DNA of 8,707 nucleotides, taken from the UHGV virus genome UHGV-0140516. One strand, given 5' to 3'. Below the pieces are notes generated by a model that saw only the letters and a list, made by a program, of their open reading frames with translations, had not been told where the DNA came from and did not search any database. Made by a program: the position numbers and the translations under genes. Shown here piece by piece: positions 1,321 to 8,707 of this stretch; positions within the stretch are counted from its first letter, which is position 1, and each line of letters opens with the position of its first letter. This stretch comes from a virus.

Positions 1321-1710
1321 AGGGGAGCATATGACACATAAAACAAAGGCGACCGGGGGCGGTCGCCAATGGGAAAACACTAAACATAAGCCCGAACATC
1401 ATAGCGATTTGCTGGCTGGTGGGCAATGTGATCAGTGTACTGGCTTGCTGGTGGGCTATTCCTGCTCTTTAGCATCGCCATGCTGCGATGTTTTCCAGGT
1501 ATGCGATCCCATTTTTGTGCGCCTGTACTCTTTAAGGAACTTCTCAAGGACAAACGCACATGGTGCGAATCTCTCCGGTTCATGTTCGTTTACCGCATTT
1601 TTGCGTTGTTTTTTCTTGGATGAGGATAATTTCTTTAATGATTTGTCAGTCATCGTAGATACCTGTAACCCTGTGCGTCACAGTTCACCGCACCACGGCA
1701 CTGGTGATGG

Positions 1711-1890
1711 TTACTCCTGCTCTTTGGCCTTCCGGCGCTGGCGGCGTTTGATCTCGCCACGCATGGCTGTAACGATAAACTGCGCGTCTGTTTCGTTTTC
1801 CTCTTTGACCAAATTCATTTCGCTTAAAACTTCTAGAGGGATTCTAGCCGTTTTTTGTTGTGATTTGTTGTTGGTTGTACCCGTTGGCAT
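1711..1890 (-). CDS. Small Arc/Mnt-like ribbon-helix-helix DNA-binding protein (putative repressor), divergent from the replication operon
   Basis: Internal Met of the 115-aa minus ORF. ATG at 1890-1888 is preceded by a strong SD (AAGGAGG, complement of 1896-1902) at 5-6 nt spacing. The 59-aa product MPTGTTNNKSQQKTARIPLEVLSEMNLVKEENETDAQFIVTAMRGEIKRRQRRKAKEQE aligns with P22 Arc (RWPREVL / AEENGRSVNSEIYQRV versus RIPLEVL / KEENETDAQFIVTAMR). Basic C-terminal tail. Confidence 0.55.
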   Translation of the reverse strand: MPTGTTNNKSQQKTARIPLEVLSEMNLVKEENETDAQFIVTAMRGEIKRRQRRKAKEQE

Positions 1891-1951
1891 TACTGGCCTC
1901 CTTACTGTTAGGTGGCGTTCAGTATACGTAGAAAAAAAAATAAAAAAAGGC

Positions 1952-2002
1952 TTGAAGTGCAAGTCACCTAAAAGTAGCATAATCTTCAAAGGTGACTTGC
2001 AC
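1952..2002 (+). promoter_or_regulatory. Candidate sigma70 promoter for the replication operon, overlapped by a 13-bp perfect inverted repeat (putative operator)
   Basis: -35 TTGAAG at 1952-1957, 17-bp spacer, -10 TAGCAT at 1975-1980 (CATAAT at 1978-1983 as alternative). Inverted repeat GTGCAAGTCACCT at 1957-1969 and AGGTGACTTGCAC at 1990-2002 brackets the -10. On the opposite strand, a TATACT -10 (complement of 1921-1926) lies upstream of the RHH gene. Confidence 0.4.
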
Positions 2003-2083
2003 CTTAAAGACAAAGCCCCGCAAGTGTCGTTACCACTCGCAGGGCTTCTAACCACCAACGATAACGATAGTATCGAGGTAGCT

Positions 2084-2287
2084 ATGAGAAATCATACCAC
2101 ACACCCGCAAGGGCGGGACTCGCACAACCTGAATAAATACATCTGGCGTTTTATCGCCCTGAGCACGGCACAACCGCGCGTGATTACCATTGAGGCCACC
2201 AGCGAACAGGAAGCCCGCCAGCAATCCCCGGCTGGCTGCGTGATGGTATTCGCCGCCCGTATTCGTCAGGGGGTGTGCCATGCCTGA
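2084..2287 (+). CDS. Small hypothetical protein (67 aa), first gene of the replication operon; possibly of the short Icd-like family seen next to P4-type primases (unverified)
   Basis: ATG at 2084 with GAGG at 2075-2078. It is the 3' part of the long 1190..2287 track ORF, and only this part has a start and RBS. Product MRNHTTHPQGRDSHNLNKYIWRFIALSTAQPRVITIEATSEQEARQQSPAGCVMVFAARIRQGVCHA. Its stop overlaps the start of the next ORF (2280/2287). Confidence 0.5.
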   Translation: MRNHTTHPQGRDSHNLNKYIWRFIALSTAQPRVITIEATSEQEARQQSPAGCVMVFAARIRQGVCHA

Positions 2288-2600
2288 TATGTCAAATTAC
2301 CAGTACCTGATTAATCCGCATTTTAACTGTGAGCATGATATGGCTAAAAAGGTTTATTCCGCTGCGGATGGGGCTACTGACAATATATCAATGGCTGTTG
2401 CGTCAATTGGTAGCCTGATGTGGCATGCGTCAGAAAATGAGGACTATGACGAAAAGGCCATGCGCATTGATATGGGTAATATCGGTTTGTTACTGGCAAT
2501 GCTTGGGCAGTTTGATATTTCGTTACGGTGCACCATTGAAAATGCCACAGATGCATTAAATGCCATAAAGAAAGCGAATACTGATTCAAATCGGGGATAA
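2280..2600 (+). CDS. Hypothetical protein (106 aa), unknown function
   Basis: ATG at 2280 overlaps the upstream stop (translational coupling). AGGGGG lies about 10 nt upstream. No recognisable motif. Confidence 0.5.
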   Translation: MPDMSNYQYLINPHFNCEHDMAKKVYSAADGATDNISMAVASIGSLMWHASENEDYDEKAMRIDMGNIGLLLAMLGQFDISLRCTIENATDALNAIKKANTDSNRG

Positions 2601-2606
2601 ATAATC

Positions 2607-2906
2607 ATGAGAACATATTTATCTGGCTTGACTGCCAGCGGTTATGCACACCCCAAAATTATCCCCGGCGCTATTTATCTGGATAAGAACGGTAACAGAG
2701 TAACGGTAAAAGAACTGATGTTTGACCGTGTGTATTTTATTCGTGATGGATATTCATTTCATAGTTCGCTGAACGTGGAGATCTTTATTAGCAGATTCAG
2801 GCGGGAAATCCCGCTTTCCGGAAATAACCATGTGTCATGTCTGGATGTTGATAAAAAACTACAGGAACTGAAAAACATGATTGCCGCGTGGAGAGAGCAG
2901 AAATGA
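2607..2906 (+). CDS. Hypothetical protein (99 aa), unknown function
   Basis: Starts 7 nt after the upstream stop. Its TGA (2904-2906) overlaps the primase ATG (2903-2905) in an ATGA arrangement. No recognisable motif. Confidence 0.5.
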   Translation: MRTYLSGLTASGYAHPKIIPGAIYLDKNGNRVTVKELMFDRVYFIRDGYSFHSSLNVEIFISRFRREIPLSGNNHVSCLDVDKKLQELKNMIAAWREQK

Positions 2907-4720
2907 AAAAAGCGCCAAATTTAAAACACCAGCCGCGTGACAAAATGACGGAAGTCATCATTTTTGCGGGTAGTAATGCGTGGGCACATGCGAAGCAGTG
3001 GCAGGAACAGGACGGGCGACTGGCTGGCGATAACGTGCCTCCTGTCTGGCTTGGAGAGCAACAACTTGCCGAACTGGACAACCTGCAAATCGTACCGGAC
3101 GGACGCTATCGCGTGCGTCTCTATCAGGCGGGGTTATTGCGTCCGGGGCTTGTTAATACCATCGGGCAGAAACTGGCAGTGGCAGGTGTCAGGGATGCTG
3201 ATTATTACCCTGAAGGAATGCACAGCCAGAAACGGGAGAACTGGCGCGAATATCTGGAACGTGAACGGGCAGAGCAGGCGGAAAAGAAAAAGGTAGTTGA
3301 ACTGCCTGTAAAGAAAAAAGAGCGGGTAAAAGACGATAACGCTTCATCACTGGCGCTTAACCAGATGGGAGCAAGTCAACGCGGCGAAGTTCTCCTGGCA
3401 CATTATGGCGGTGAACTGGCGATTCATGCTGACTCTGACACTGTTCACCATTACAACGGCGTTGTATGGGAGCCAGTACAGGATAAAGAATTACAGCGAG
3501 CTATGGCACAGATTTTCATTGATGCGGAGATCAGCTATTCGCAGAACGCCATTAAATCGGCGGTCGATACCATGAAGTTAAGTTTGCCTGTAATGGGGAA
3601 TACAGCCCGTAACCTGATTGGATTCAGTAACGGGGTATTTGATACCAGAACAGGTAATTTTCGGGAGCATAACAAAAACGACTGGTTGTTAATTGCCAGT
3701 GAATTACCTTTCAGCCCACCAGCAGAGGGGGAAACGCTGGCAACACATGCGCCGAATTTCTGGAAGTGGTTACGCCGTTCGGTGGCTGAGAATGACCGCA
3801 AGGCGGATCGCGTACTGGCTGCATTATTCATGGTGCTGGCGAACCGGTACGACTGGCAGTTATTCATTGAGGTAACAGGTCCAGGGGGAAGTGGTAAAAG
3901 CGTGATGGCGGAGATTTGCACCATGCTGGCGGGTAAGGCCAACACAGTATCGGCAAGCATGAAGGCGCTGGAAGATGCAAGGGAACGCGCGTTAGTGGTT
4001 GGCTTTTCGCTGATTATCATGCCGGATATGACCCGCTACGCTGGTGATGGGGCAGGGATTAAGGCTATTACAGGCGGTGACAAGGTGGCAATTGACCCGA
4101 AACACAAAGCCCCCTACTCAACGCGTATTCCGGCAGTAGTGCTGGCGGTTAACAATAACGCCATGTCATTCAGTGACCGCAGCGGGGGGATCTCACGTCG
4201 TCGGGTGATATTCAATTTTTCGGAAGTTGTACCGGAGAACGAACGCGATCCAATGCTGGCGGAAAAAATAGAAGGTGAGCTGGCGGTAGTGATTCGCCAT
4301 CTGCTTACACGGTTTGCTGACCAGGACGAAGCCAGACGCCTGTTATATGAGCAGCAGAAATCTGAAGAAGCACTGGCGATAAAGCGAGAGGGGGATTCGC
4401 TGGTGGACTTCTGCGGCTATCTCATGGCGTCGGTAATGTGTGATGGCCTGTTAGTGGGTAATGCTGAAATTGTGCCATTCAGCCCACGCAGGTATCTCTA
4501 TCATGCCTATCTGGCTTATATGAGGGCACATGGGTTTGGTAAACCTGTAACACTGACGCGCTTCGGTAAAGATATGCCGGGGGCAATGGCGGAATATGGC
4601 AGGGAGTATATGAAACGGAAAACGAAGCACGGTTTTTGTTCAAACGTGACACTGACGGAGGAATCAGAAGACTGGATGCCATCATGTGTATCGGTCACTA
4701 ATGACGATAGTAAAAATTAA
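2903..4720 (+). CDS. P4-alpha-like primase/helicase replication protein (D5-type NTPase)
   Basis: 605-aa ORF. ATG at 2903 is preceded by GGAGAGAG at 2890-2897; the track start at 2888 is GTG. Walker A GPGGSGKS is encoded at 3878-3901, in frame. Followed immediately by the cognate-type iteron array. Large and well anchored. Confidence 0.85.
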   Translation: MKKAPNLKHQPRDKMTEVIIFAGSNAWAHAKQWQEQDGRLAGDNVPPVWLGEQQLAELDNLQIVPDGRYRVRLYQAGLLRPGLVNTIGQKLAVAGVRDADYYPEGMHSQKRENWREYLERERAEQAEKKKVVELPVKKKERVKDDNASSLALNQMGASQRGEVLLAHYGGELAIHADSDTVHHYNGVVWEPVQDKELQRAMAQIFIDAEISYSQNAIKSAVDTMKLSLPVMGNTARNLIGFSNGVFDTRTGNFREHNKNDWLLIASELPFSPPAEGETLATHAPNFWKWLRRSVAENDRKADRVLAALFMVLANRYDWQLFIEVTGPGGSGKSVMAEICTMLAGKANTVSASMKALEDARERALVVGFSLIIMPDMTRYAGDGAGIKAITGGDKVAIDPKHKAPYSTRIPAVVLAVNNNAMSFSDRSGGISRRRVIFNFSEVVPENERDPMLAEKIEGELAVVIRHLLTRFADQDEARRLLYEQQKSEEALAIKREGDSLVDFCGYLMASVMCDGLLVGNAEIVPFSPRRYLYHAYLAYMRAHGFGKPVTLTRFGKDMPGAMAEYGREYMKRKTKHGFCSNVTLTEESEDWMPSCVSVTNDDSKN

Positions 4721-4731
4721 ACTTATGGAAT

Positions 4732-4963
4732 AACTGTTCACCACTGTTCACCCTGTCATAAATATCTTTTATATCAGTATATTATAGGGTGAACAGTTAT
4801 TTATGAACTGTTCACCAAACTATTCACTGTTCACCTTTTTGATTGTTTATTGAGCTTCAAGGGTGAACAGTGGTGAACAGTTGGTGAATAGTTTTTGTGA
4901 AACTGTTCACCCCTTAACATTATGAATTAAAAGATAAAATATCAAAAGGTGAACAGGTGAAGG
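4732..4963. repeat. Replication-origin iteron array (P4 ori/crr type): at least 9 perfect TGTTCACC / GGTGAACA octamers in both orientations with AT-rich spacers
   Basis: Plus-orientation TGTTCACC at 4735-4742, 4745-4752, 4809-4816, 4828-4835 and 4904-4911. Minus-orientation GGTGAACA at 4788-4795, 4862-4869, 4872-4879 and 4948-4955. Degenerate copies at 4821-4828, 4883-4890 and 4956-4963. AT-rich stretches at 4760-4786 and 4918-4946 are candidate unwinding elements. TGTTCACC is the octamer I recall as the P4 alpha-protein binding iteron. Confidence 0.8.
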
Positions 4964-5007
4964 GTTAAAACGCAAAAATTTTAATTTACTGCTGTGAGAT
5001 AAAGCCT

Positions 5008-5253
5008 ATGACAGCGAAGCACACAAAAAAATCACAATCGCACGCCCTTGATTTGACGGAACACTGGTTAAGGGTGTCGATAAAAATCATCGACCGCAAC
5101 GCCGGGGAAGGATATGCGAAAGCACATCCCGAACTGATTAGCGCATTCATGACAACGGCAGCTGCAAACTTTGCCACGCTGACAGAACGGGAGATTGCCG
5201 AAGCGGAACAGGTGACAACCATCAACGTTAAAACCGGAGAGCAGACAGCATGA
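5008..5253 (+). CDS. Hypothetical protein (81 aa), translationally coupled to the SSB-like gene
   Basis: ORF starts just downstream of the iteron array. Its TGA (5251-5253) overlaps the ATG (5250-5252) of the next gene. No recognisable motif; weak RBS. Confidence 0.45.
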   Translation: MTAKHTKKSQSHALDLTEHWLRVSIKIIDRNAGEGYAKAHPELISAFMTTAAANFATLTEREIAEAEQVTTINVKTGEQTA

Positions 5254-5672
5254 CAGCACAGATAGCGGCTTACGGGCGGCTGGTGGCTGACCCGCAGTTA
5301 AAGACCACCAGCAAGGGTACACAAATGACGATGGCTAGTATGGCGGTCCCCCTTCCGTGCAGCCAGGCAGATGACGGAACGGCGACGATGTGGTTATCCG
5401 TCCTGGCGTTTGGCAGACAGGCCGACGCACTGGCAAAACACCACAAAGGCGAACTGGTGAGCGTGGCGGGTAACATGCAGGTAAGCCAGTGGACAGGCCA
5501 GAACGGCGAAACGCGGCAGGGCTGGCAGGTTATCGCAGACAGCGTAATCAGTGCGAGAACGGCGCGACCGGGCGGCAAAAAAGGCCAGCAAGGGCAGGCT
5601 ACTGACGCACTGAACAGGGCAAAACAACAGGCGGGTAACGATGATCCGTACGGGGATAACATACCGTTTTAA
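5250..5672 (+). CDS. ssb: Single-stranded DNA-binding protein family (short SSB-like OB-fold protein with C-terminal DNIPF tip)
   Basis: Aligns by eye to E. coli SSB across the OB fold (G-x-L-x-x-DP; W-x-x-V-x-x-FG-x-x-A; KG-x-x-V-x-x-x-G-x-x-x-x-x-x-WT-x-Q-x-G-x-x-R). Ends in DDPYGDNIPF, resembling the SSB DDDIPF partner-binding tip. Shorter than host SSB (140 versus about 178 aa). Confidence 0.7.
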   Translation: MTAQIAAYGRLVADPQLKTTSKGTQMTMASMAVPLPCSQADDGTATMWLSVLAFGRQADALAKHHKGELVSVAGNMQVSQWTGQNGETRQGWQVIADSVISARTARPGGKKGQQGQATDALNRAKQQAGNDDPYGDNIPF

Positions 5673-5686
5673 GCAACGAGTAACAG

Positions 5687-5710
5687 AAGCCGGAGAAGTC
5701 CGGCTTTTTT
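5687..5710 (+). terminator. Rho-independent terminator after the SSB-like gene
   Basis: Stem AGCCGGA (5688-5694), loop GAAG, stem TCCGGCT (5699-5705), then a T6 run ending at 5710. Confidence 0.7.
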
Positions 5711-5720
5711 ATGCCCCAAA

Positions 5721-5758
5721 AAAAGCCCGATAAGGTCAGAGGGTCTTATCGGGCTTTT
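5721..5758. terminator. Second hairpin with A-run and T-run flanks (possible bidirectional terminator)
   Basis: AAAAGCCCGATAAG (5721-5734), a 10-nt loop, then CTTATCGGGCTTTT (5745-5758). Confidence 0.5.
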
Positions 5759-5838
5759 GCATATGAGGCTTTTATCTAACAGTATGGTGACTACTGTTGC
5801 CGGAAATCATTTCACAATTTGCAACACAACTCAACATT

Positions 5839-5899
5839 ATTGCGTAAAATGAAATCATGATTATAATCACAACTGGATGAACATCCAGTTGTGATTTTT
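5839..5899 (+). promoter_or_regulatory. Candidate promoter of the head-gene operon followed immediately by a 15-bp perfect palindrome and T-run (operator or attenuator hairpin)
   Basis: -35 TTGCGT at 5839-5844, 16-bp spacer, -10 TATAAT at 5861-5866. Perfect inverted repeat AATCACAACTGGATG (5864-5878) and CATCCAGTTGTGATT (5882-5896) with a 3-nt spacer, followed by a T5 run (5895-5899). It sits between the promoter and the RBS of the first head-module ORF. Confidence 0.4.
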
Positions 5900-5923
5900 A
5901 ACGTCAAAGAGGAATTTCCGACT

Positions 5924-6130
5924 ATGGCAGAAGAGAAAAAAGGCGGGGTGACAGTTTACATAAGCCCAGACATCGTGGAGGCGCTCAAGGAACGCCACCA
6001 GCAGAACGTAAAAGCAGGCATTGCGGCAGGACTTGAGCCGCTGGCGATGGTTGAGCCGTCAACAGGCTGGCAGGTACGCGCCTATTTACGCGCGGCGCTG
6101 GGCATGAATCAGACTCATGGGGGTGAATAA
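5924..6130 (+). CDS. Hypothetical protein (68 aa), first ORF of the head module
   Basis: ATG at 5924 with AAAGAGGAA at 5906-5914. The track start at 5891 is GTG inside the palindrome, so it is disfavoured. The stop TAA overlaps the capsid-gene ATG (TAATG at 6128-6132). Confidence 0.5.
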   Translation: MAEEKKGGVTVYISPDIVEALKERHQQNVKAGIAAGLEPLAMVEPSTGWQVRAYLRAALGMNQTHGGE

Positions 6131-7185
6131 TGACAGGCAAAGCAACGGCACTTAACACTAACCAGCTTTTCGCGTACCTGAATCGTGGGGATATTTCGGA
6201 ATTTAAATTCAGTCCGCTGTTTACGTCGCTGTTTTTCCCGAACGTGGCAACCTTCAACACGCAGGACATCATGTTAGATACCCTGGATATTGAAGAAGTC
6301 ACCATGTCGGCTTTTTGTTCGCCTATGGTGGGGAGTCAGGTTCAGCGCGATAAAGGGTACGAAACAAGCACTATCCGCCCTGGCTACATGAAACCAAAAC
6401 ACGAAATCGATCCATCAAAAACCATCATGCGCATGGCTGGAGAAGATCCGGCACAGCTTAACGATCCAACTTATCGCCGTATGCGCCTGATTACTGGCAA
6501 CATGCGCCGCCAGGTAAACGCTATTAAAGCTCGCATAGAATGGCTGGCGGTGAATGCGGTCACGACCGGAAAAAACATCATTGAGGGCGAAGGAATAAAT
6601 AGATACGAAATCGATTGGAAAATCCCGACTAAAAACATCATTACGCAGGGATCGGGCAAAAAGTGGTCTGAGGCAGATAAGGAAACACACGATCCAATCT
6701 ATGACATCGAACTATACACCGATCAGGCTGGTTGCCCCGCCAACGTCATGATTATGGGCGCTGAGGTATGGCGCACGTTACGCAGCTTTAAAAAATTCCG
6801 TGAACTGTACGATCTTTCCCGTGGTTCAGAATCCGCCGCAGAGCTGGCCTGTAAAAACCTGGGCGAAGTAGTGAGCTTTAAAGGCTATCTGGGTGATCTG
6901 GCCCTTATCGTCTATTCCGGCAAATACACCGACAGCGATGGCACCGAAAAATATTTCCTTGAGCCTGATTTGCTTGTCCTGGGCAACACTAACAATAAAG
7001 GGCTGGTGGCCTATGGTGCGATTATGGATCCGGAAGCGGTAAGAACTGGCGCAACGCAAAACATGTACTACCCGAAAAACTGGATTGAGGATGGCGATCC
7101 GGCGATTGAGTACGTGCAGACGCACAGCGCACCGCAGCCGGTACCGGCAGATATTCGCAAATTTGTTACCGTCAAAATTGCTTAA
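6130..7185 (+). CDS. Major capsid protein, lambda gpE family
   Basis: 351-aa product aligns to lambda gpE over its whole length by eye: KFxPLF...LFF near the N-terminus, PGY(V/M)KPKHE, DP-x-x-L-x-DP-x-YRR-x-R-x-I-x-x-NMR, SYKG / SFKG, VVYSG / IVYSG, LGNT, YPKNW and a C-terminal GDPA. Similar length (351 versus 341 aa). Confidence 0.9.
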   Translation: MTGKATALNTNQLFAYLNRGDISEFKFSPLFTSLFFPNVATFNTQDIMLDTLDIEEVTMSAFCSPMVGSQVQRDKGYETSTIRPGYMKPKHEIDPSKTIMRMAGEDPAQLNDPTYRRMRLITGNMRRQVNAIKARIEWLAVNAVTTGKNIIEGEGINRYEIDWKIPTKNIITQGSGKKWSEADKETHDPIYDIELYTDQAGCPANVMIMGAEVWRTLRSFKKFRELYDLSRGSESAAELACKNLGEVVSFKGYLGDLALIVYSGKYTDSDGTEKYFLEPDLLVLGNTNNKGLVAYGAIMDPEAVRTGATQNMYYPKNWIEDGDPAIEYVQTHSAPQPVPADIRKFVTVKIA

Positions 7186-7196
7186 CGGGGGATTCT

Positions 7197-7532
7197 ATGA
7201 ACACTCCATACATTGAGTTATTTGCAGGCAGTCAGCAGGTATCCACGACGCTGGTACATTTTGCCGCTGATGCTGGAGTTATTCAGGAATTTACCCCGCT
7301 GATGCTGGCGGACAATGGCGAGTTTAAGCCGTGGGATGGTCAGGAATCTGGCAAGGCTGTTTATCTGACCTCGTACCCCGTTGACACGTCGACGCAGAAA
7401 TCAGCACAGTGCTATAAGACGGGGATATTTAATATCGCCGCCGTTAACTGGCCTGAGAGCGTCGACACCGATGCGAAAAAATGCGCCGCCTTTGCGGGTT
7501 CTGGCGTATCCGTTCAGCCACTGGCCCGATAA
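7197..7532 (+). CDS. Head decoration protein, lambda gpD family
   Basis: 111-aa product shares with lambda gpD the motifs TPLML, WDG, YK(S/T)G-x-F, WPE and KK-x-x-AFAG. Near-identical length (111 versus 110 aa). RBS GGGGGA upstream. Confidence 0.8.
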   Translation: MNTPYIELFAGSQQVSTTLVHFAADAGVIQEFTPLMLADNGEFKPWDGQESGKAVYLTSYPVDTSTQKSAQCYKTGIFNIAAVNWPESVDTDAKKCAAFAGSGVSVQPLAR

Positions 7533-7544
7533 GCAGAGGGAACG

Positions 7545-7958
7545 ATGGCAACGAATGAAAGTATCATGACGCTACCGCTGGCGAGTAAATTTAAGGCCGA
7601 AGCGCGGGCAATGGCTGACAGAGGTTTATCAACCTACGAGGCCGTATATCAACTTAACAGCCTGGAAGAGAAGGACAAGCCGCGCTCTGATGCGATTATG
7701 GCGCTTGATGAATCTGGCGACTATCAGCCGCTGTTACGTGCAATGGCAAACGTGCCTTGTATCGATGTTGGTACGGCTAAAAGCATCCTTAGCATGACCA
7801 TAGAGCAGGAACGCCAGAAGGTTGCACCAGAGCTTACCGCAGCCTTTGAAAACTTTATGGACATGCACAGCCCGAAAGCCGTATCAGCTGGTATGGCATA
7901 CGCTGGCAGAAACCCGGGCGATGATGGCGACATCGATCGCATACTGAAAACCATCTGA
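7545..7958 (+). CDS. Hypothetical protein (137 aa) between the decoration gene and cos; function unknown
   Basis: Good RBS (AGAGGGAA 5 nt upstream of the ATG). Followed by a strong terminator. No similarity to lambda FI, FII or W that I can see. Confidence 0.6.
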   Translation: MATNESIMTLPLASKFKAEARAMADRGLSTYEAVYQLNSLEEKDKPRSDAIMALDESGDYQPLLRAMANVPCIDVGTAKSILSMTIEQERQKVAPELTAAFENFMDMHSPKAVSAGMAYAGRNPGDDGDIDRILKTI

Positions 7959-7962
7959 GACA

Positions 7963-7987
7963 AGGCCGGAGAAATCCGGCTTTTTTT
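7963..7987 (+). terminator. Rho-independent terminator ending the head-gene operon
   Basis: Stem GGCCGGA (7964-7970), loop GAAA, stem TCCGGC (7975-7980), then a T7 run (7981-7987). Near-duplicate of the terminator at 5687-5710. Confidence 0.75.
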
Positions 7988-8160
7988 ACGGGTCCTTTCC
8001 GGCATATGAACCCGTTACGGGGCGGCGACCTCGCGGTTTTTCGCTATTTATGAGCTTTTTCAGGGTGGTGGTGGTGGTTTTGTTGTTTGCTCTATCTCCA
8101 TGAATAAAAAGGGAAAGATAACACCAACACACCAACCTGAAACCTTGACCAAGTTGGGAT
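7988..8160 (+). other. cos: Lambda-type cos site: cosQ-like element, cosN with a 12-nt cohesive-end sequence identical to lambda, and a divergent cosB-like region
   Basis: ACGGGTCCTTTCCGG (7988-8002) matches the lambda right-end cosQ region. GTTACG then GGGCGGCGACCT (8020-8031) is the lambda cohesive-end sequence. CGCGGTTTTTCGCTATTTATGA (8032-8053) matches lambda left-end bases 13-35 with about one substitution. Downstream (8054-8160) differs from lambda cosB and contains GGTGGTGGTGGTGG (8065-8078) and the oppositely oriented CACCAACACACCAACC (8123-8138). Confidence 0.85.
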
Positions 8161-8164
8161 ATTG

Positions 8165-8707
8165 ATGAAATCGCACCTGATGAACAAAAAAACCATGGCG
8201 CAAAGCTGCCGGGTAAGTGCTACAGCATTCGACAAGTGGGGAGTGACTCCCGTTGAACGTAAAGGCCGTGAGGCGTTTTATGATGTTGCCAGCGTGATAG
8301 ACAATAGGGTTAACAATGCAATTAGCCAGCTTACAAACGACAAAGGCGAGATTGATGATGATGAACTCTTACGAGTCAGGATCAGATTACTGACAGCACA
8401 GGCGGAGGCGCAGGAACTTAAAAACGAGCGCGATCGCGGTGACGTGATTGATACAGAGTTTTGCATGTACGCCCTTTCAAAACTGGCGAGTCAGATTTCA
8501 TCAATCATGGACAGCCTCCCGCTTACTATGCAAAGGAGCTTCCCACAGATGACCCCCGTCATGCTGGATGGCCTGAAAAAAGAAGTTGTCAGAGCCTGTA
8601 ACGCATGCACAAAACTTGATGAAAACATCCCGCGAATGCTGTCCGATTATCTGATGGAAACTACCGGAAATGTGCCTGATAAGTTTCAGCCGGATAAAGA
8701 CAAGTAA
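8165..8707 (+). CDS. Terminase small subunit, lambda Nu1 family
   Basis: Lambda Nu1 LTRAQADAQELKNARDSAEVVETAFCTFVLSRIAGEIASILDGLPLSVQRRFPE...LDELIPGLLSEY aligns with LTAQAEAQELKNERDRGDVIDTEFCMYALSKLASQISSIMDSLPLTMQRSFPQ...LDENIPRMLSDY. The N-terminal NKK...wHTH region is more divergent. First ATG is at 8165; the track start at 8162 is TTG; the ATG at 8180 matches the Nu1 N-terminus better. Position just downstream of cos, as in lambda. Confidence 0.85.
   Translation: MKSHLMNKKTMAQSCRVSATAFDKWGVTPVERKGREAFYDVASVIDNRVNNAISQLTNDKGEIDDDELLRVRIRLLTAQAEAQELKNERDRGDVIDTEFCMYALSKLASQISSIMDSLPLTMQRSFPQMTPVMLDGLKKEVVRACNACTKLDENIPRMLSDYLMETTGNVPDKFQPDKDK

Follow-up and report, generated by a model that had tools for sequence, protein, structure and literature searches.

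What does a perfect palindrome do at the promoter of a capsid-gene operon in a phage satellite? The question is raised by the virus genome UHGV-0140516, whose 8,707 nt were analysed in full and are called the window here. The window is an Escherichia coli phage-inducible chromosomal island (PICI), and the palindrome lies at the promoter of four genes that include homologues of lambda head proteins. A first-pass annotation had offered two roles for it: either a dimeric regulator binds it as an operator where transcription starts, or it is an early intrinsic terminator that keeps the capsid genes silent. Comparison of sequences leads us to a version of the first. Most probably, the palindrome is an SOS box in a sigma-70 promoter (TTGCGT-16-TATAAT), and the four-gene capsid-homologue operon would be repressed by the host protein LexA.

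The regulatory region contains the following elements:
5809-5814, + strand: ATTTCA, a possible UP or activator site that lies ~26 nt upstream of the -35
5840-5845, + strand: -35 element TTGCGT, with TTG as in the consensus and 3/6 matches overall
5862-5867, + strand: -10 element TATAAT, a perfect consensus
5865-5896: perfect inverted repeat of 15+15 nt, AATCACAACTGGATG (5865-5879) and CATCCAGTTGTGATT (5882-5896), with a 2-nt gap
5871-5890: predicted LexA operator (SOS box) AACTGGATGAACATCCAGTT, heterology index (HI) 6.81
5873-5876, + strand: predicted transcription start, 6-9 nt past the -10, as inferred from sigma-70 geometry
5895-5899, + strand: T-run, T5 here and T6-T7 in relatives, within the T-rich leader that precedes the ribosome-binding site
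5906-5914, + strand: ribosome-binding site AAAGAGGAA, conserved in all relatives, with the ATG at 5924

The -10 with its -35, the perfect palindrome, the TTTTT, the ribosome-binding site and the first open reading frame (ORF) of the head module all read as the first-pass annotation had described them. Two details of the layout were corrected. The palindrome had been placed immediately after the -10 but overlaps its last 3 nt. The U-tract said to follow the palindrome is the T5 at 5895-5899, but two of these T lie in the right arm, which leaves three past the stem.

The palindrome and the LexA consensus

The longest perfect arms in 30 shuffles of the window measured 6-10 nt, compared with the 15 nt observed. 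The core of the palindrome, CTGGATGAACATCCAG, has the form CTG-N10-CAG, which is the spacing of the LexA (SOS) box, TACTG(TA)5CAGTA. Box and palindrome have a common centre (5880|5881). The 20-nt box is perfectly symmetric, with CTG and CAG intact and 13/20 matches to the consensus.

For the HI, position penalties were solved from 145 E. coli K-12 site/HI pairs (Table S1 of PMC12527982). The additive model gave an exact fit (root-mean-square error 2e-5) with all 42 parameters determined (rank 42), and the recovered matrix is therefore the published one. Reference sites of the same table are TACTGTATATTCATTCAGGT (HI 6.98), TGCTGTATATACTCACAGCA (6.40), AACTGTTTTTTTATCCAGTA (6.11), CGCTGGATATCTATCCAGCA (9.19) and CACTGGATAGATAACCAGCA (9.54), which we take to be the uvrA, lexA, uvrB, ruvAB and cho boxes, respectively. 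The island box thus equals the first three in quality and surpasses ruvAB. Only ~11 distinct K-12 sites outscore the island box. Its HI of 6.81 is within the range of LexA-binding sites, defined by the published low-HI class (<= 13.6) and a classic cut-off of ~15. The low-HI class, which runs to 13.6, agreed with 24/24 binding assays (PMC12527982).

A site this good is expected by chance at a rate of 5.2e-8 per position, or 4.6e-4 per window, and the other six CTG-N10-CAG sites of the window have an HI of 17.9 or worse. The probability that an arbitrary perfect palindrome reads as a box with HI <= 6.81 is 9e-5. The position of the box would also suit a repressor site. It starts 3 nt past the -10 and spans ~-4 to +17 of the predicted start (~5874), and LexA boxes overlapping the transcription start are the rule for tightly LexA-dependent genes (PMC8072944). 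The earlier proposal of an operator for a dimeric regulator was therefore right in kind, given this HI and the conservation of the box across genera described below. The sequence points to host LexA as the regulator, and not to a factor of a helper phage.

Similar sites were seen elsewhere. TACTGGAT[G/A]AACATCCAGTA, in which consensus TA flanks surround this core, occurs in five unrelated phage contigs (L102, L105, L107, L133 and L141). The A form has an HI of ~4.3 (hand calculation), and in L133 the site is directly upstream of a gene start. These sites are probably SOS boxes of other phages. A weaker SOS-box-like site, TACTGGATATGCGAACAGAT (HI 11.58), was found between int and alpA in the island of O157:H7 SS52 (L003, 1363-1382); the window has no equivalent.

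Conservation of the promoter and the box

To follow the box within E. coli, viral contigs and E. coli loci were searched with an anchor made of the promoter alone (ATTGCNNAAAATGNAANNNNNNTTATAATC), which is blind to the downstream box. CTG-N10-CAG was found at the same offset in 154/157 promoter-anchored matches (50/52 distinct sequences), with HI values of 5.41-9.61. The exceptions were one contig with a 1-nt insertion and one capsid-forming PICI (cf-PICI). Within the box, CTGGAT, T14 and CAG are invariant, and variation is confined to positions 1, 2, 9, 15 and 20 and the centre, all of low weight in the matrix. The three bases flanking the core on each side (5870-5872 and 5889-5891) are hypervariable. 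Three distinct variants have C5885 changed to A (ATACAG). This change breaks a mid-stem G-C pair and moves the box toward the consensus (HI 5.41); because it disrupts the stem yet improves the LexA match, it favours protein recognition over RNA pairing as the constraint on this position.

The promoter is similarly constant. TTGC of the -35 is invariant in all relatives, a single one of the ~50 distinct variants departs from the -10 (TGTAAT), and TTATAATC is invariant in alignment A3. Our consensus scan of the window missed this promoter (-35 3/6), but the orthologous Salmonella promoter, TTGCGA-16-TATAAT, scored 10/12. Further upstream, ATTTCA is invariant in a six-way alignment (E. coli, Salmonella, Pluralibacter, a cf-PICI). 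Conservation from E. coli as far as Pluralibacter, and in the cf-PICI, extends to TTGCA/TGCAA repeats upstream of and across the -35 (5809-5860). Together with ATTTCA, they may form a site for an activator, or a UP-like element. The -10 also sits within a 12-nt perfect palindrome of its own, TGATTATAATCA (5858-5869), extended to 14 nt in CFT073-type copies, so that TATAAT can be read on both strands. The TGATT of the -10 region recurs at 5892-5896 as the right outer arm.

Distant relatives were traced via homologues of the 68-aa first ORF of the operon. Both Salmonella and Pluralibacter retain the 16-nt spacer between -35 and TATAAT. A Salmonella Glostrup island (first ORF 66% identical) has the promoter TTGCGA-16-TATAAT and, at the same offset, the box GACTGGATAAATATCCAGAT (HI 9.86). 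The middle of its long palindrome is broken, and the fold is reduced to -9.1 kcal/mol (z = -1.5). A Pluralibacter gergoviae island (first ORF 60% identical) keeps the promoter and has the box AACTGGATGTTTGTCCAGTT (HI 8.44), shifted 12 nt downstream; the outer arms AATCA/TGATT are absent. The centre and the flanks of the box are altered in both genera. Judging from these loci, three genera have retained the two LexA half-sites with the correct spacing between them, and not the long hairpin. The shift in Pluralibacter (L185, ~3939-3953) comes from a 12-nt insert, AACTGAATTTTT, between -10 and box, which places the box downstream of the predicted start. The insert consists of a T-run and a degenerate duplicate of the left half-site.

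Two kinds of relative have the promoter without the box. The first is a cf-PICI in E. coli JNEC-KY176 (L147), with an HK97-type capsid, protease, portal and terminase. At its positions 5800-6320, it shares the two terminators upstream of the promoter and the promoter itself up to TTATAATC, followed by an unrelated 170-nt leader without an SOS box. As this distribution indicates, the promoter module is exchanged between PICI types. The same contig carries a cos-like GGGGCGGCGGGGTCGCGG between the two terminators. The second is a minor E. coli PICI lineage, found in 22/5426 complete genomes, which has the same operon (first ORF 62% identical) without box or hairpin. It keeps the promoter (-10 = TAAAAT) and the T-rich leader with T-runs. 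Because these box-less lineages keep it, the promoter is a real conserved module. The leader of the minor lineage (L209-L214, ~125 nt before the first ORF) has ATGTTTGT in common with the Pluralibacter box region, which suggests the decay of an ancestral box.

A published SOS transcriptome of O157:H7 PA20 (PMC5931665) is uninformative on this promoter, as the phoQ-adjacent island in the Sakai reference is a box-less cf-PICI. The genes of that cf-PICI, ECs1590-1598 (head, protease, portal, terS, terL), were down, not up, at 12 h (PMC5931665).

Some variants bear on how the palindrome evolves. The centre (equivalent to 5879-5882) is inverted from GAAC to GTTC in L063 and L160, and L038 has a matched change from TTA to TCC with pairing to GGA restored. 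Loop inversions and multi-base jumps are typical of templated mutation in palindromes. The observed changes have the appearance of template switching within a DNA palindrome, a process that requires no selection on RNA. One could go further and regard the whole palindrome as a by-product of such quasi-palindrome mutation beside a promoter, with no regulatory role. The loop inversion and the multi-base 'compensatory' jumps would agree with this, but templated mutation accounts for matched arms and not for a match to the LexA consensus. Moreover, hundreds of genomes have an unchanged core, and three genera keep it, with neighbouring bases free to change. We consider this explanation very improbable.

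The hairpin in RNA and rival regulators

Could the palindrome act in RNA, as a terminator? The sequence 5865-5905 folds with -19.2 kcal/mol (z = -6.1), a strong hairpin with U residues after it. This hairpin has 5 G-C pairs in 14 and an A-U-rich base, with only 3 unpaired U past the full stem, and it was not called by the consensus scan. The left arm (5865-5879) begins within the -10 (5862-5867), so the hairpin is lacking in RNA made from the TATAAT promoter. A transcript from ~5874 (~7 nt past the -10) loses 8-10 nt of the left arm, and its fold drops to -4.4 kcal/mol (z = -0.4). The full hairpin is possible only in RNA starting upstream of 5865.

Such RNA might come from a second promoter-like site, TTCACA-18-CATTAT (5811-5840), found by the consensus scan. 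The hairpin would then be an intrinsic terminator or attenuator at which this RNA ends early so long as no helper antiterminator such as Q intervenes, or it would add a third insulator that blocks read-through from the early operon. The CATTAT -10 of that site varies among relatives and is lost in Pluralibacter (TTGTGT). Two strong terminators are already present 110-180 nt upstream:
5687-5710, + strand: terminator-like hairpin AAGCCGGAG..TCCGGCTT followed by a T-run, -14.2 kcal/mol, z = -4.9, closing the replication/SSB unit
5714-5758: second terminator-like hairpin, potentially bidirectional, A7-GCCCGATAAG...CTTATCGGGC-T4, with perfect 14-nt arms, -23.1 kcal/mol, z = -5.0

The first of these is conserved in the CFT073 and O157 islands, and the second is common to the cf-PICI L147.

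In relatives, the consensus scan called the corresponding sites of Pluralibacter and Salmonella terminator-like, and the Pluralibacter hairpin is downstream of the predicted start, but the stability of the fold is not conserved, as seen in Salmonella. The T-rich leader persists in the lineage without the hairpin, and the T-run therefore belongs to the leader and not to a terminator. Several variants have G.U pairs on the + strand, and pair 5870/5891 (pair 6) occurs in three Watson-Crick versions. Two pairs have changes on both sides, and pair 5870/5891 is unpaired in 10/23 variants, including the commonest O157 form. Overall covariation in the 23 distinct variants was weak, with 95.0% of cells paired vs 94.0% in shuffles. 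The usual caution for related sequences applies to this test, and its signal is indistinguishable from palindrome-templated mutation. Covariation as proof of an RNA structure was dropped for these reasons. An Rfam search at a permissive E-value found nothing on the palindrome.

The first-pass annotation had likened the layout to lambda PR'/tR' with Q antitermination. As in lambda PR'-qut-tR', a promoter before head genes has a hairpin and a T-run close by. The likeness ends there: in the island the -10 overlaps the hairpin, no Q-binding element or lambdoid late-region similarity was found, and the LexA half-sites are conserved where the hairpin is not. A blastn search (11-nt words) of the regulatory region against 50,697 phage records returned only 33-nt chance matches over the ribosome-binding site, and the 68-aa ORF has no homologue in the same records. 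Together, these results argue against a borrowed phage late promoter. We regard termination or Q antitermination as an unlikely main function of the palindrome, and the early terminator envisaged for silencing the capsid genes did not hold up. At most, the hairpin has a minor role in stopping read-through RNA from upstream.

A combination of both activities is somewhat easier to accommodate, but is still improbable. The DNA core would be the LexA operator, and the full hairpin with its U-run would terminate RNA that originates in the AlpA-driven early operon or at the promoter-like site upstream. Such a two-layer switch would seal the operon from helper-induced early transcription and open it only by SOS, a strict AND/insulation logic. 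We know of no satellite for which this logic has been described.

The palindrome might instead be the operator of another dimeric regulator, island- or helper-encoded, with a fortuitous likeness to an SOS box. It reaches 6 nt past the LexA box on either side, the words TGATT/AATCA recur around the -10 (in TGATTATAATCA), and the regulation of these islands is only partly known. On the other hand, no gene of the window stood out as a candidate for a regulator of such specificity. AlpA is the sole DNA-binding regulator found by Pfam in the window, and the alpA promoter region shares no 8-mer with the capsid-operon promoter region, which gives no reason to invoke AlpA at this site. Conservation across genera picks out exactly the LexA half-sites and leaves out the outer arms, and a chance palindrome would rarely score this well as a box (9e-5, as above). 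We therefore give another regulator a low probability, below that of a terminator. A Fur-like site was also considered for the AT-rich palindrome around the -10 and was not retained.

Several observations weigh against control by LexA. The 32-nt palindrome exceeds the 20 nt needed by LexA. Its outer arms, AATCA/TGATT, lie outside the box, and 5+5 nt would be complementary by chance at ~1e-3, which implies that some further constraint or mutational process acts on the palindrome. The true start site could differ from the predicted one, as the -35 is weak and a promoter-like site lies upstream. The minor E. coli lineage and the cf-PICIs share the promoter without the box, and LexA control is therefore dispensable for this operon type. 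Finally, deleting the capsid and decoration homologues of CFT073 (c1499 and c1500) had no phenotypic effect in published work (PMC6092414).

The operon, its island and the proposed control

Between 5924 and 7958, the four ORFs overlap or follow one another closely, and a hairpin comes after them:
5924-6130, + strand: first ORF, 68 aa, phrog_3255, with a stop that overlaps the start of the capsid gene
6130-7185, + strand: major capsid protein homologue, lambda gpE-type (Pfam Phage_cap_E, 3e-52)
7197-7532, + strand: head decoration protein homologue, lambda gpD-type (Pfam HDPD, 3e-18)
7545-7958, + strand: 137-aa protein, like the C-terminal (scaffold, Nu3-like) part of head maturation proteases (phrog_1999, 7e-62)
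7962-7987, + strand: hairpin followed by T7, the probable operon end, -14.4 kcal/mol, z = -2.6, preceding cosN

Homologues of the first ORF are confined to island contexts. The 137-aa protein matches the C-terminal 75 positions of the head-maturation-protease profile (phrog_53 positions 494-568, 1e-8). In lambda, the same C-terminal part of the protease yields the Nu3 scaffold. The island may accordingly encode E, D and scaffold without protease or portal. One hairpin type (GCCGGAG-A-TCCGGC, then T6-T7) closes both the replication/SSB unit (5687-5710) and the capsid-homologue operon (7962-7987). Since the latter hairpin and then cos end the run of four ORFs, the terminase-like gene beyond them is probably a separate unit.

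The remaining features of the window are:
49-693: tyrosine integrase, C-terminal part
1111-1320: AlpA-family regulator
2888-4720: D5-type primase
4729-4921: iteron array GGTGAACAGT
5250-5672: SSB, followed by a 252-nt intergenic region
8019-8030: lambda-type cosN GGGCGGCGACCT, between the capsid operon and the terminase-like gene
8162 onward: small-terminase-like (terS/Rpp-like) gene

A DUF4222 protein is also encoded. Integrase, AlpA, primase, ori iterons and cos are all present and identify the window as an EcCICFT073-type PICI (PMC6092414, PMC6739421). About 10 copies of GGTGAACAGT / ACTGTTCACC in both orientations follow the primase gene directly, an iteron-type replication origin as expected of a PICI. 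The site at 8019-8030, labelled terminator-like by the consensus scan, is the exact lambda cohesive-end 12-mer. A PDB sequence search with the terS/Rpp-like protein gave no match, and the terminase-like gene of E. coli 06-00048 is interrupted by ISEc10.

The 501 nt around the palindrome are 100% identical to E. coli 06-00048, ~89% to CFT073 and ~81% to O157:H7 strains. This region is present in 587/5426 complete E. coli genomes (~11%), including CFT073, Nissle 1917 and many O157:H7. The window as a whole is a mosaic, with 1526-8707 98.4% identical to 06-00048 and the integrase/alpA end (1-1525) ~90% identical to other strains. Scans of genome contigs with the capsid protein and the promoter pattern returned only chance matches, in Clostridia metagenome-assembled genomes.

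Control of the operon by LexA would work as follows. In undamaged cells, a LexA dimer on 5871-5890 (~-4 to +17) would block initiation. Upon DNA damage, active RecA would lead LexA to cleave itself, and the promoter would open. The same signal induces lambdoid helper prophages, so the operon would open in step with them. The T-run would simply be part of the T-rich leader. The excess length of the palindrome could be explained if the left arm doubles as part of the -10/discriminator and templated (quasi-palindrome) mutation keeps the arms matched. The island would then have two inputs, the helper phage via AlpA for excision and replication, and SOS via LexA for the capsid-homologue operon. According to published work, it is the helper that elicits expression of alpA, irrespective of SOS (PMC6092414).

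Known LexA targets offer several comparisons. The ruvAB (CGCTGGATATCTATCCAGCA) and cho/ydjQ (CACTGGATAGATAACCAGCA) boxes of E. coli resemble the island box in their CTGGAT...ATCCAG half-sites, CTG-N10-CAG spacing and AT-rich centre. Like the island box, chromosomal SOS boxes of E. coli have a functional-range HI. They sit on or beside the -10 and +1 of a sigma-70 promoter, as the island box does with respect to its -10 and predicted start. The island box differs from them in its location on a mobile satellite, before capsid-like instead of DNA-repair genes, and in being embedded in a 32-nt perfect palindrome. Mobile elements that use host LexA as a DNA-damage sensor via an SOS box in their own promoter include coliphage 186 (tum), Gifsy (antirepressors), GIL01 (P1) and CTXphi (PrstA). 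In these temperate phages LexA controls the lysis-lysogeny switch, whereas in the island it would control structural-type genes, and island induction is reported to be SOS-independent (PMC6092414).

The closest parallel is a satellite. Packaging operon I of the staphylococcal pathogenicity islands (SaPIs) is LexA-controlled, according to Ubeda 2007 as cited in PMC6092414. There, too, a satellite morphogenesis module is under the host SOS repressor, with excision and replication under a helper signal, a two-input logic. The present island, too, has a predicted LexA box where its morphogenesis/packaging module is transcribed from, as in SaPI operon I, and the correspondence is a functional analogy only: the two operons have no sequence homology, and the Gram-positive LexA box is a different motif. 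The island operon holds gpE/gpD/scaffold-like genes, with the terS/Rpp-like gene beyond the terminator and cos, and its early switch is the activator AlpA, in contrast to the repressor Stl of SaPIs. The searchable literature, which excluded subscription-only papers, contained no statement of an SOS box or of LexA control on a Gram-negative PICI or cf-PICI operon. In the PICI literature searched, the sole mentions of LexA were references to the SaPI study.

Current accounts of Gram-negative PICIs have them activated by the helper via AlpA. The conserved SOS box would add a direct input from host DNA damage. If true, this input would parallel the LexA control of SaPI operon I, and unrelated satellites would have converged on one regulatory logic. 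The SOS box also offers a handle on c1498-c1501 of CFT073, genes without a known phenotype, for which the box-less lineages are natural controls.

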